From positions 218,483 through 282,482 of the forward strand of contig JBEKFP010000003.1 in the NCBI GenBank assembly GCA_050013255.1: DNA of 64,000 nucleotides, given 5' to 3'. The notes under the pieces are model-generated. The model searched no databases. It was not told the DNA's origin and saw nothing but the letters and a program-made list of their open reading frames with translations. Both the position numbers and the translations under genes were made by a program. Of this stretch, positions 2,974 to 20,631 are shown piece after piece. Numbering within the stretch: the first letter of the stretch is position 1; the number at the start of each line of letters is the position of its first letter. Source of the stretch: Candidatus Bathyarchaeia archaeon. GTDB lineage: Archaea > Thermoproteota > Bathyarchaeia > 40CM-2-53-6.

Positions 2974-3019
2974 GTGTGTGATACTAGTGGTGCGACCGTC
3001 GTAATTTGAACCGTCGTTC
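2974..3019. repeat. Cassette junction J1: GTGTGTG | ATACTAGTGGTGCG | N11-TTGAAC (tRNA-3'-like target)
   Basis: 14-mer at 2981-2994; TTGAAC at tRNA T-loop spacing; followed by CCGTCGTTC. Confidence 0.85.
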
Positions 3020-3030
3020 AGGTCGTCCTT

Positions 3031-3071
3031 GTGTGTGTGGTATCAGTGGTGCGAGCACCCAAATTTGAACC
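3031..3071. repeat. Cassette junction J2: GTGTGTGTG | GTATCAGTGGTGCG | N11-TTGAAC
   Basis: 14-mer at 3040-3053. Confidence 0.85.
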
Positions 3072-3087
3072 ACCAGACATAAGGGGG

Positions 3088-3759
3088 CTATGGGAGTGTG
3101 ATGCCGAATACACCTACGGCTCCTCGTATGAGGAATGAGATGCCAATGGCTCCCATAAGTATGTCCATGACTTTTCCAGTTATTACCATGACTGATGGCT
3201 TCAGGACTTTCATGAGTCTACTGCTCAAACTGAACAGTAACCAAACGATCACGCAGTCAACCACAATCGCGACTGCCATGCTGAAATCCATCCACCCCTT
3301 CGCGGCTCCATACTGAGGATTGTTGAGTACCATAACTGTCGCAATCGCCCCTGGTCCAGCCAATAGTGGAATAGCCAACGGGAAAACGGCTATACTGTCA
3401 GTAACGCCACTTGACAGGGTGCGCCCCCTCCTCCTGTATAGGGATTTGGCCGCGCTCTGGACTTCGGATGAGGCGACATCTTTGACCGCGAAGACGAGAA
3501 TGAATACGCCTCCCGCGATCATCACGGAATTGAGAGTGATTTGGAGGGCGCCTAGGATTGCGTCGCCCAAGTACGCGAACACCAACAGTACCGCTATGGC
3601 GACTGTAATCGTCTTCCTGGCAATCGCAGCCTTCCGTTCCCCTGTGGCCCCAGCTGTAAGCCCCTGAAAGAACGGAATAACCCCGAGTGGGTTTAGGATG
3701 ACGAATAGTGTAATCAGGGATTCGGTAAGGTCCTGCAGAAAGCCGGTCGAGAATGACAA
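3088..3759 (-). CDS. marC: MarC family membrane protein (sole gene between J2 and J3)
   Basis: LFVILNPLG, IAGG, AVFPLAIPLLAGPGAIATV motifs. Confidence 0.9.
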   Translation of the reverse strand: MSFSTGFLQDLTESLITLFVILNPLGVIPFFQGLTAGATGERKAAIARKTITVAIAVLLVFAYLGDAILGALQITLNSVMIAGGVFILVFAVKDVASSEVQSAAKSLYRRRGRTLSSGVTDSIAVFPLAIPLLAGPGAIATVMVLNNPQYGAAKGWMDFSMAVAIVVDCVIVWLLFSLSSRLMKVLKPSVMVITGKVMDILMGAIGISFLIRGAVGVFGITLP

Positions 3760-3801
3760 AACGTCAACACGCCTACCGTAATGCGCTCGGGGCTACCTAA
3801 A

Positions 3802-3857
3802 TGTGTGTGTAGGTAGTGATGGTGCGGGCGCCGTAAATTGAACCGTCGTTCGTCGTC
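3802..3857. repeat. Cassette junction J3: TGTGTGTGTAG | GTAGTGATGGTGCG | N11-TTGAAC
   Basis: 14-mer at 3813-3826. Confidence 0.85.
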
Positions 3858-3864
3858 AAAAAAA

Positions 3865-3919
3865 TGTGTGTGTGGGTCTTATGGTGCGAGCATCGCAAAT
3901 TGAACCGTCGTCGTTCGTC
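3865..3919. repeat. Cassette junction J4: TGTGTGTGTG | GGTCTTATGGTGCG | N11-TTGAAC
   Basis: 14-mer at 3875-3888. Confidence 0.85.
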
Positions 3920-3963
3920 CGTCAGGATGGAATAGTTAGAATGGCCTTCGTAAGAAGGAGTGC

Positions 3964-3990
3964 GGGTATGCTGGTGCGCGCACACACACT
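3964..3990. repeat. Cassette junction J5: GGGTATGCTGGTGCG | CGCACACACAC (copy 1 of an exact 15-bp repeat)
   Basis: 15-mer at 3964-3978 is identical to 9582-9596 and 20561-20575. Confidence 0.9.
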
Positions 3991-18396: not shown

Positions 18397-18623
18397 AGGT
18401 TTAGTCTACCTGACCAGCGGATTATTCTTTCTGATTTTGATGTTCTGGTAGTGTTATGTCCGAGCTTAACTACTCACGCGGATGGTTCATCATGTGGTCC
18501 TTCATGTTTTATGATTCATAAGAAATCAGGTTCTTATCCTACTCCTGCCGTTCCTACTCCTACCGTACCGAACAGGTTCCTGCCGTCATTCCTACCCTTC
18601 GTGTTGTCACAATCCTAATATTA

Positions 18624-18662
18624 GCGGCGGCGGGGGCGGCGCACCAACGATACCACACACAC
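18624..18662 (-). repeat. Junction J11 (inverted) with internal right TIR: GTGTGTGTG | GTATCGTTGGTGCG | CCGCCCCCGCCGCCGC
   Basis: 14-mer at 18640-18653; near-perfect inverse of 9574-9612. Confidence 0.9.
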
Positions 18663-18687
18663 TTTTCAAACGAACGCAGTCCGATGG

Positions 18688-18717
18688 TCCGGCGACCGCA
18701 TCAGTGATACTACAGAC
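18688..18717 (-). repeat. Junction J12 (inverted, degenerate): GTCTGTA | GTATCACTGATGCG | GTCGCCGGA
   Basis: 14-mer at 18697-18710; TGATGCGGTCGCCGG resembles the tRNA-Gly 3' end TGGTGCGGCCGCCGG. Confidence 0.55.
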
Positions 18718-18729
18718 TAAGCGCGACTT

Positions 18730-20193
18730 CTATGTTGCTAGGCCACACTGCTTCCTGAGTTTCTCCATTAGTTCTCGGTATCGAGGGTCGGCCCTTGCCT
18801 TCGCGCAGAGAGGTGAGTACATCACGAACAGGGAAATTATCGCATGCTCTTCAAGGGCCTTGTTCACGTACTGGAAGTATGAGTCGAGGTCTCCGAGCGC
18901 GTGGTAGACAAACCCCATGTAGTTGAAGCCTATTGGACCCACCTTGGCATTCTCAATCTTCTTGATTGCGAGGAGTGCCGTATCTCTGTCGCCTTCCATG
19001 GCCGCGACGACCCCTCCCATCCAAGCGACCCTAGAATTGGTGGGATCGAGCTTCTCAAACTTCGCAAGGAGCTCCTTAGCCTTCTCAAGTTCCCCTTTGG
19101 CTAGGTAGTACTCCGTCATTCCCCTGTAGGTCCACGCAGGGGCAATCTGCTCGTACTTCTTCCAGTGCTCCAACGCCTCCTGCTCCCTCCCCGTATAGAG
19201 ATACGCTAGCCCCACAAGCCAGGTGAACCGCGGCCTCACGGGGTCTAGGCGGTATGCTGTCTCGATCTGCCTAACCATCTCCCCCTGGTTTCCCTTGATT
19301 CCCTCCACCTCAAACAGTATCCAGTAGGCGTCTGGGAGACTCGGGTTAAGCTCCAAAGCCTTCCTCGCCTCCGCCTCCGAACCTAAGACATCGTCCTCAT
19401 CGAAGAGCAAAACAGAAAGCACCGCGTGGGCCTCCGCAAGGTTCGAGTCGAGATTAAGGGCACGTTCCAATAATTGCCTCGCAGTCGAATGAGAGACATC
19501 AAACGGTTCCTTTCCGACGTTGGAAAGATAACTGTGGCACTCTGCCGCGCCGACGTATGCCCTCGCGAACTTGGGATCCAGTTCGATGGCTTTCTCAAAG
19601 AGGCTGATAGCCCGCTCTGTTGTATCTATGCTTACTTCCCGTAGTAGTTCTCTGCCTTGCAAGAAGTACGTGTACGCCTCAGTGTTCTCGGTAGGCTTCT
19701 TCTGTAGGGTTCGCTTCTCAGAGTCGAGTAGCTGGGTCTTGAGCTCTCCCGCCACCTTCTCAGCTATCTCACTCTGAACGGCGAAGATATCGTCTAAGTT
19801 CTTGTCATAGTGGGAGGACCACACGTGTTCTTCCGTTCCCGCGTTGATTAGCTGAACCGTGACCCTGACCCGGTTACCTGCCTTCCTTACACTGCCTTCG
19901 ACCACCGACCCGACGCTGAGTTCCTTTGCGATTTCGGAGACATTCTTCTCCTTCTTCTTGTAATTCATCACTGACGTCCGAGCTATGACCTTCAAACTCT
20001 TCACCTGAGAAAGCCTGTCAATCAACTCCTCCGTCATGCCGTCCGCGAAGTACTCGTCGTTAGGGTCGGGGCTCATGTTCTTCATGGGCAAAACGGCAAT
20101 CCGGAGCTTGTCTAGCGTCTGCTGTGCCGTGGAGAACGCGGGGGGAATGAAGCTCTTCGACCGGGCGAGGTCGGCTGGCTGCAAATGATTCAC
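18730..20193 (-). CDS. TolB-like plus TPR-repeat protein (adenylate-cyclase-associated type, no cyclase domain)
   Basis: IAVLPMKNMS, EYFADGMTEELI, VEGSVRKAGNRVRVTVQLI, then TPRs. Confidence 0.85.
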   Translation of the reverse strand: MNHLQPADLARSKSFIPPAFSTAQQTLDKLRIAVLPMKNMSPDPNDEYFADGMTEELIDRLSQVKSLKVIARTSVMNYKKKEKNVSEIAKELSVGSVVEGSVRKAGNRVRVTVQLINAGTEEHVWSSHYDKNLDDIFAVQSEIAEKVAGELKTQLLDSEKRTLQKKPTENTEAYTYFLQGRELLREVSIDTTERAISLFEKAIELDPKFARAYVGAAECHSYLSNVGKEPFDVSHSTARQLLERALNLDSNLAEAHAVLSVLLFDEDDVLGSEAEARKALELNPSLPDAYWILFEVEGIKGNQGEMVRQIETAYRLDPVRPRFTWLVGLAYLYTGREQEALEHWKKYEQIAPAWTYRGMTEYYLAKGELEKAKELLAKFEKLDPTNSRVAWMGGVVAAMEGDRDTALLAIKKIENAKVGPIGFNYMGFVYHALGDLDSYFQYVNKALEEHAIISLFVMYSPLCAKARADPRYRELMEKLRKQCGLAT

Positions 20194-20545
20194 GATTACC
20201 TGACTGCGTATCTAGCTAAGCTTGCCGAGCCGGTTGTTATAGAGCCTTTCCTCAACTCGCACGCGAGAGACTAGGTGGTTCAGCAGTCACTTCACATTCG
20301 TATTGTGACGAATCATCGTTCCGTATTCTCTCGTTCTTTAGGTCTTGTTTCTTGTAGGAAATCGTATGGTATTATTGGTCAGCATGTTTGTATTGGCATT
20401 GTCGTACGTGACGTCCAAGCGTCATGTTTTATGATTCATAGAACATCAGGCTACCGCCACTAAGAGAATGTTGTGCGAGCGAAGCGAGCACCAAGCTAAC
20501 CAAGTAAGCGAGCGAAGTGATCTTCAACAGGTTCCAACTTCGGGC

Positions 20546-20592
20546 GGCGGCGGCGGGGGCGGGTATGCTGGTGCGGGCGAGCGGATTTGAAC
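20546..20592. repeat. Right TIR and junction J13: GGCGGCGGCGGGGGCG | GGTATGCTGGTGCG | N11-TTGAAC
   Basis: Direct-repeat copy 3 at 20561-20575, followed by the T-loop mimic. Confidence 0.9.
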
Positions 20593-20604
20593 TCTCGTTT
20601 GGGG

Positions 20605-20631
20605 GAGAGCTTGGTGCGGCCGCCGGGATTC
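20605..20631 (-). repeat. Junction J14: duplicate of the tRNA-Gly 3' end and its flank
   Basis: GAGAGCTTGGTGCGGCCGCCGGGATTC matches 22818-22844 at 26/27. Confidence 0.85.

Follow-up and report, generated by a model that had tools for sequence, protein, structure and literature searches.

Probable casposon-type insertions, with and without Cas1, in a tRNA-side island of a Bathyarchaeia archaeon

The stretch of DNA analyzed here (the window; 64,000 nucleotides of contig JBEKFP010000003.1, positions 218,483 to 282,482, of the Candidatus Bathyarchaeia archaeon assembly GCA_050013255.1) carries, at positions 2974–20631, an island of genes and short units separated by a recurring junction sequence and located next to a tRNA gene. 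A preliminary description, made from the sequence alone, had interpreted the island as an integron-like gene-cassette array built by a solo Cas1. The junctions are 14-mers of seven variable bases followed by TGGTGCG, which we refer to as landing-site copies. The source genome is designated G000 (contigs C1, C2 and C3), other G numbers denote relatives, and L numbers denote loci, of which L062 and L064/L065 are metagenomic. The island and its anchor contain the following features:

2019–2885 (+): EamA-family transporter gene (Pfam EamA), the leftmost cassette-like gene
2981–2994 (+): junction J1, landing-site copy behind a GTGTGTG tip, its TGGTGCG exact and starting at 2988
2995–3039 (+): solo end unit of tRNA T-loop mimic, spacer and GTGTGTGTG tip, among the 11 intervals of 39–83 bp found genome-wide
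3040–3053 (+): junction J2, landing-site copy, exact 14-mer
3054–3812 (−): MarC cassette, gene at 3088–3759 (Pfam MarC, 1e-38), one open reading frame (ORF) between two junctions
3813–3826 (+): junction J3, landing-site copy, exact 14-mer
3827–3874 (+): solo end unit, by interval class and flanks
3875–3888 (+): junction J4, landing-site copy, exact 14-mer
3965–3978 (+): junction J5, exact 14-mer, first of three identical GGTATGCTGGTGCG copies
3979–9582 (no strand): Cas1-less composite unit of 5.6 kb with CACAC and GTGTG tips and identical 14-mers on both sides
5186–5199 (−), 6415–6428 (−), 7584–7597 (+) and 8748–8761 (+): inner junctions of the composite unit
9583–9596 (+): junction J11, second GGTATGCTGGTGCG copy, left target-site duplication of the predicted casposon
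9597–20561 (+): predicted PolB-less casposon, outer unit of 10,965 bp with identical 14-bp duplications on both sides
9597–9613 and 20545–20561: 17-bp C-rich inverted ends of this element
11918–12415 (−): HNH endonuclease gene (Pfam HNH_3, 2e-15; PADLOC homing endonuclease)
12697–13911 (+): predicted casposase (Cas1, 404 amino acids; Pfam Cas_Cas1, 1e-52; match to 6OPM)
13913–14677 (+): cargo gene for a TIR-domain protein (Pfam TIR_2, 3e-19; PADLOC ThsB-like)
18640–18653 (−): junction J12, inverted landing-site copy inside the outer casposon, directly after an inner right end at 18624–18639
18654–20193 (−): truncated TPR cassette, TPR gene at 18730–20193, homologous to a TPR/KaiC cassette on C1
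18654–18710: long terminal repeat of the TPR cassette, with a degenerate inner landing-site copy at 18697–18703
20562–20575 (+): junction J13, third GGTATGCTGGTGCG copy, right target-site duplication
20576–20604 (+): T-loop mimic, a tRNA-like remnant of the original landing site
20605–20631 (+): tRNA 3' end copy, 27 bp, one mismatch to 22812–22838, an att-like repeat
22825–22919 (−): tRNA gene with an intron and a CGCACCA end, anchoring the island (ARAGORN; Rfam tRNA, 48 bits)

TGGTGCG occurs 22 times in the window, with 6.5 copies expected, and none of 100 shuffles reached 22. Within 2974–20631 lie 14 of these copies, one of which (9267) falls in the methyltransferase gene by chance. Exact 14-mers start at 2981, 3040, 3813, 3875, 3965, 7584, 8748, 9583, 20562 and 20605 on the plus strand and at 5186, 6415 and 18640 on the minus strand, and 13 of the 14 junctions originally listed are thus exact. 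The remaining one, 18697(−), is a degenerate copy (CGCATCA, one base off) that lies as an inner landing site in a long terminal repeat. The 14-mer at 20605 has no element tips at its sides and belongs to a tRNA 3' fragment, being of another kind than the remaining junctions. The layout given in the preliminary description was confirmed: a GT-run or G-run, seven variable bases, TGGTGCG, and then either a CA- or C-run or a stretch that contains ATTTGAAC and resembles a tRNA T-loop. Every (GT)4 and (CA)4 run of the window adjoins these 14-mers, and a weight-matrix scan for degenerate junctions (at least 14 bits) returned only exact TGGTGCG sites. Read on the opposite strand, the heptamer is CGCACCA, with which several tRNA genes in the genome end (CCA included), the anchor gene among them. 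For 1–24 kb of the window, Rfam matched only the tRNA, so the T-loop mimics do not belong to any known RNA family.

Pfam confirmed MarC, two EamA transporters, a class I methyltransferase, the TPR protein, the HNH endonuclease, the TIR-domain protein and Cas1, so that the labels first given to the MarC, EamA, methyltransferase, TPR and Cas1 genes hold. Two genes had additionally been called HEPN; the R-x4-H motif is present in both, while for the family we have a MauJ/ApeA-like lead for one of them. Both lie in the composite unit (3979–9582), whose five sub-cassettes hold small ORFs, a 285-amino-acid R-x4-H protein, the MauJ-like protein, an EamA transporter and the class I methyltransferase. 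For the unknown ORFs of the casposon, NCBIfam and PADLOC returned matches for Cas1, HNH and TIR only. As had been noted before, no tyrosine or serine recombinase is found within 1–24 kb of the window, and the three tyrosine recombinases of the genome are all located outside the arrays.

The window Cas1 aligns with the Methanosarcina mazei casposase 6OPM over residues 4–395, including the C-terminal region (E = 8e-77). It keeps the motifs VEG, GFLHE and YDLEEPFR, with the catalytic E, H and D/E motifs retained, and its nearest database relatives are labelled Bathyarchaeia proteins. We predict a family-2-like casposon lineage, accompanied by Cas1-less derivatives. A second full-length Cas1, 60% identical to the first, is encoded at C1:1333438–1334640 within a 16.3-kb element (C1:1330273–1346555; L046/L047). 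Its inverted ends of about 28 bp begin with CACACAC, and the consensus 14-mer GGTCTAATGGTGCG is present on both sides (C1:1330266/1346563). Comparable Cas1 elements were found in G004 (L013; 7.1 kb, C-rich ends, identical 14-mers), in G003 (L022; 4.9 kb, with the anatomy of the window casposon), and in the metagenomic loci L064, which equals L065 (8.9 kb, 24-bp ends, identical 14-mers), and L062 (13.1 kb, flanking 14-mers identical in 13 of 14 bases).

Direct 14-bp repeats, identical or matching in 13 of 14 bases, thus surround the inverted ends of six independent Cas1 elements. Because the full 14-mer is repeated directly around these elements and the inverted ends lie between its two copies, we conclude that the 14-mer is a target-site duplication. 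The idea that TGGTGCG forms part of the inverted end was rejected, as the full 14-mer is directly repeated in the elements of G004, G003, L062, L064 and C1. Cas1 elements bear either C-rich or CACAC tips, so both tip types belong to them, and the CACAC/GTGTG ends are common to the second Cas1 element and the Cas1-less cassettes. A genuine tRNA 3' end adjoins an element tip at C1:1132495, and the target is site-specific, being a tRNA 3' end or a CGCA-led site.

None of eight Cas1 elements examined contains a PolB-sized ORF or a PolB Pfam match, and the three PolB genes of the genome are all on C2, far from the arrays. By the strict (self-synthesizing) definition, the elements are for this reason not casposons; they are casposon-like and dependent on host synthesis. 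Their cargo is frequently of a defense type: a TIR/ThsB-like protein (window), AIPR, DndB-like, DNA methylase and GHKL-type ATPase genes (C1 element), CAP12-TIR and SIR2 (L062), and AbiTii and MazE (L064). The smallest measure 2.8–4.9 kb. One 2.8-kb unit (G014:C8; L016 8580–11377), with little beyond Cas1 and located between two inverted site copies, is Cas1 itself as a near single-gene cassette. At C3:171759–171887, a 43-codon fragment of a casposase C-terminus (56% identical) is the relic of a third element. Further, C1:1346563 and position 15243 of L013 in G004 are an orthologous landing site beside the same converging tRNA gene, occupied by two different casposons, CACAC-tipped in the source genome and C-rich-tipped in G004.

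About 75 junctions are present in the genome, with about 14 multi-junction clusters. Cas1 lies in only two clusters, and the tie between array and solo Cas1 locus that had been assumed from the window is not borne out. A single array can hold as many as 14 junctions. By length, the stretches separating junctions form two groups, one of 11 short intervals (39–83 bp) and one of about 27 intervals of 0.6–2.5 kb, mostly with exactly one ORF. These single ORFs encode, among others, CBS, MFS, LCM and class I methyltransferase, KaiC-like ATPase, TauE, cupin, radical SAM, UbiA, epimerase, SET, TBP and TFS proteins. At L053, a gene for a TATA-binding protein (TBP; C2:743967–744536) and one for a TFS/TFIIS-type zinc-ribbon protein (745608–745931) each lie alone between casposon-type junctions, so paralogs of basal transcription factors travel as cassettes. 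The early description of units with short ends, many of them single-gene and stacked head to tail, is supported.

The short intervals share a layout of site, T-loop mimic, spacer and GT tip. The same layout makes up the ~55-bp inverted ends of the C1 TPR/KaiC cassette and the end of the truncated TPR cassette in the window, where the inner site copy is the degenerate 18697. Because of this match we regard the short units as long ends with an inner landing-site copy; the solo end unit at 2995–3039 has the layout of the long terminal repeats of the C1 cassette.

Identical 14-mers also flank units without Cas1. The window GGTATGCTGGTGCG 14-mer (GGTATGC version) occurs four times in the genome, three of them in the window, and these three copies bound both the 5.6-kb composite and the casposon. 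Two other 14-mers that occur only twice in the genome bound Cas1-less units of 4.3 kb (C1 42250/37900) and 2.0 kb (C2 285247/287254), and identical rare 14-mers flank a Cas1-less unit at C1 257880/259497 as well. In total, 12 cases of identical same-strand 14-mers within 20 kb were counted, against a shuffle mean of 3.8 (25 of 5000 shuffles reached 12). Seen from the junction, 7 ORFs run in the same direction and 6 in the opposite one; this random orientation argues against an integron-like expression logic.

Relatives differ exactly at the junctions, where the preliminary description had proposed to look for cassette gain, loss or reordering. In G004, the left flank of the window and the tRNA-side segment are just 74 bp apart, and 1285–20621 is missing at the orthologous site; G018 is without the window array, too. 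The sub-cassette 3980–4886 is present in G004:C8 in inverted orientation at another junction. The EamA gene 2019–2885 has a 94% identical copy in G014:C12, which has a landing-site copy plus tRNA-like remainder on one side and, on the other, a G-rich tip and a variant 14-mer. Similarity to the window breaks off at 2970 there, and the segment 2018–2970 has other neighbors past its junctions. Within the source genome, 6593–7450 has an 88% identical copy at C1:720236, and the TPR cassette is 79% identical to C1:1352968–1354441, whose gene also has a KaiC domain; this homology begins exactly at the 18640 junction. In G018 and G021, the MFS cassette of C1 recurs at another locus with 97% identity, while the chromosomal flank shows 81%. 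The evidence for transposition is thus comparative: a block missing in G004 and cassettes at other loci.

We also searched relatives for a GT-run followed by 5–9 bases and TGGTGCG, with the reversed pattern as a control, which gave about zero matches. The pattern was found in 22 of 22 other genomes of the genus and in 10 of 10 genomes of the genus g15, whereas it is nearly absent from the sister genus g2 (22 genomes), which has no casposase-clade match. In a sample of 105 genomes of the order, 29 were motif-rich (at least 10 matches) and 30 had a casposase-clade match, with 16 having both, 13 the motif only, 14 the casposase only and 62 neither. Motif and casposase thus coincide in a test that ignores relatedness (odds ratio 5.5, Fisher P = 5e-4). 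Many genomes of the order have only Cas1 fragments, and motif-rich genomes without an intact Cas1 would fit autonomous elements that decayed and left non-autonomous ones behind. The motif is scattered genome-wide, with a link to cas1 nonetheless; the co-occurrence proposed at the outset is found in imperfect form.

Taken together, we assign a probability of roughly 75% to the reading that the island next to the tRNA gene consists of casposon-type insertions, namely a PolB-less Cas1 element and Cas1-less relatives with ordinary genes. An array built by Cas1 is likely. We propose that a family-2-like casposase, i.e., Cas1 with a C-terminal helix-turn-helix (HTH), would join the 3' ends of DNA whose short inverted tips are either C-rich or of the CACAC...GTGTG type to a landing site that resembles the last seven tRNA bases (CGCACCA) plus seven bases beyond, followed by a T-loop-like stretch. 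Staggered joining would duplicate 14 bases, so that each insertion would recreate the site and units would pile up. The Cas1 element at 9597–20561 would be one such unit, without PolB. For units with tips but no Cas1, the most likely movers are the two casposases of the genome, or earlier copies, acting in trans. The ~55-bp ends with their inner landing-site copy may seed new arrays away from tRNA genes, and later inversions, truncations and moves of whole stacks may have scrambled the array. Of the original claim that a Cas1 integrase makes a cassette array, the target-site duplication and the mimicry of a tRNA 3' end by the target survive; a system apart from casposons does not.

Several observations weigh against this reading. 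Apart from the disregard of relatedness in the association test, the near-complete genomes G016 and G018 have 26 and 38 motif matches and no casposase match. The tips of Cas1-less units are only 8–12 bp of simple repeat. Most adjacent 14-mers differ in the seven variable bases and some are inverted, which argues against a simple series of insertions into one regenerated site; we reject such repeated insertion as the whole story. A founder duplication was searched for at the array edge C1:259554, and none was found. Additionally, the Cas1 core 9597–18639 and the cassettes 3979–5185 and 6429–7583 of the window, as well as the 2.8-kb Cas1-only unit of G014 and the casposon at L061, lie between inverted rather than direct site copies, so secondary rearrangements are needed. 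The inverted copies could stem from whole-stack moves that landed reversed, or from recombination between the inverted ends of neighboring units.

Alternatively, only the ~50-bp end units and the Cas1 elements would be mobile; the cassettes would be resident genes that happen to lie between separate small insertions, and the arrays would be fossil scars that homologous recombination among the repeats has shuffled. The ordinary cargo (transporters, methyltransferases, TBP, TFS, KaiC-like proteins), the random gene orientation, the mostly differing flanking 14-mers and the persistence of arrays in genomes without a casposase match agree with such a history, and solo ends are known as remnants in M. 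mazei. We nevertheless consider it unlikely. Because insertion is site-specific, each intergenic gap would have had to contain a landing site for small insertions to occur independently. Rare identical 14-mers surround multi-kb Cas1-less units, the same cassette occurs at unrelated loci in relatives with a similarity exceeding that of its flanks (97% vs. 81%), and an entire 19-kb block is missing in G004.

The stronger form of the first interpretation, a selected host gene-capture system run by a domesticated Cas1 and intermediate toward CRISPR adaptation, draws on the repeat-insert-repeat architecture made by a Cas1-family enzyme and on the wide spread in two genera. Cas1, however, is part of mobile units that have ends of their own, and several diverged as well as many broken copies of it exist, a pattern of selfish elements and not of a fixed host gene. 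No Cas2-like ORF was among the Pfam results for the window proteins, and no leader, effector, RNA-family match or sign of array transcription was found, making this form improbable in our view. Marginally lower still we rate an unrecognized recombinase that swaps circular cassettes at the 14-mer core with Cas1 as a passenger. One gene per unit, a common junction core and an MFS cassette with the same 14-mer on one side in three genomes would suit it, and a circular intermediate with one site copy has been hypothesized for casposon excision in M. mazei (PMC10359463). Yet tyrosine or serine recombinases are missing from every array, the three of the genome being elsewhere; tips and duplicated 14-mer are shared with the units that bear Cas1, the combination of inverted tips and direct duplications marks transposition, and gene orientation is random. 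Without shared orientation and recombinase, the integron and CRISPR-intermediate readings hold for the architecture only, and an intermediate toward CRISPR is speculation.

Within the casposon reading, a more far-reaching version is possible, although we give it less than even odds: a natural, currently active Cas1 gene-cassette system, in which casposases would act in trans on dozens of Cas1-less mini-casposons, each with a host-type gene, and long ends with an inner copy of the tRNA-like site would let arrays seed and extend themselves genome-wide. If true, it would offer a living model for how a casposon target becomes a CRISPR-type repeat array. Should the casposase prove active in trans, gene shuffling by Cas1 on a genome scale would be known from nature for the first time, and the accessible substrate set (two tip types, one target) could serve to study how regeneration of the target gives rise to arrays.

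The adaptation module of CRISPR has been proposed to descend from casposons. To our knowledge, published natural casposons are few, carry PolB and occur at most in pairs. New here, in one archaeal lineage, are Cas1 elements that shed PolB, a large population of Cas1-less units with single ordinary or defense-type genes, and arrays of many inserts with a duplicated 14-bp site between them. The casposon-type elements are also carriers of defense genes (TIR, SIR2, AIPR, Abi) in Bathyarchaeia. We found no publication on natural Cas1-less, miniature inverted-repeat transposable element (MITE)-like, PolB-less or Bathyarchaeia casposons, in a search largely without subscription journals.

Three further observations concern the surroundings of the island. 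The tRNA 3' end copy at 20605–20631 is an att-like repeat of another, Cas1-independent kind: 20599–20631 and 22812–22845 form a direct repeat of the tRNA 3' end (27 bp, one mismatch) plus seven downstream bases. The 2.2 kb between them, 91% identical in G004:C8, encode an ArsR-like HTH protein and two SRPBCC/AHSA1-like proteins, and look like the scar of an integrase-type element whose integrase gene is gone. A repeat some 270 bp long, possibly a MITE, is located at 1285–1555. It recurs at least six more times in the genome, once beside another array (C1:262259), as well as in many relatives, and it matches neither Rfam nor an ORF family. Finally, 345 bp (227–571), situated between two conserved blocks upstream of a glutamine amidotransferase gene, are missing from the otherwise collinear G004, G014 and G018.

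The closest known system is the family 2 casposons (MetMaz-C1 and relatives, with the casposase 6OPM). Tandem casposons, solo ends and 14-bp duplications starting with CGCA, in either orientation, have already been published for Methanosarcina (PMC4779613). The elements described here share with this family a full-length homologous Cas1 with HTH, terminal inverted repeats, an HNH gene, a 14-bp duplication that on the tRNA strand is led by CGCA, a target at the tRNA 3' end, insertion in either orientation, tandem copies with one common duplication, solo ends, and a tRNA that also hosts other integrated elements (PMC4779613). They differ in the absence of PolB from the eight elements examined, in sizes down to 2.8–4.9 kb, in arrays of up to 14 junctions instead of two copies, in dozens of Cas1-less units with host-like genes, in long ends with an inner landing-site copy, and in their host, Bathyarchaeia. 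NitEve-C1 of Nitrososphaera was rejected as a relative, having other ends, another duplication and a protein-primed PolB.

Engineered mini-casposons without Cas1 and PolB (a marker between terminal inverted repeats and target-site duplications) are moved in trans by Cas1solo in M. mazei (PMC10359463), and their cargo integrates at the native target, often in tandem (PMC10359463; Aciduliprofundum boonei casposase assays, PMC9939771). Those are laboratory constructs, whereas the units here are natural, numerous and diverse, and would be mobilized in a like manner.

With integron arrays, the island shares mostly one gene per unit, head-to-tail stacking and a short conserved junction, and in architecture the name of integron analog is apt. 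Unlike integrons, it has no IntI-type recombinase, no common orientation or promoter logic (7 ORFs same, 6 opposite), and inverted tips with a duplicated target. By analogy, the tRNA-side stacks resemble a CRISPR array made of whole genes, for which we found no published description. As in CRISPR arrays (Cas1-Cas2), a Cas1-family integrase would duplicate a short site with each insertion, giving repeat-insert-repeat; unlike the regular 23–50 bp repeats and short spacers of CRISPR, a drifting 14-bp repeat here separates inserts of 39 bp to 16 kb that bring their own ends.

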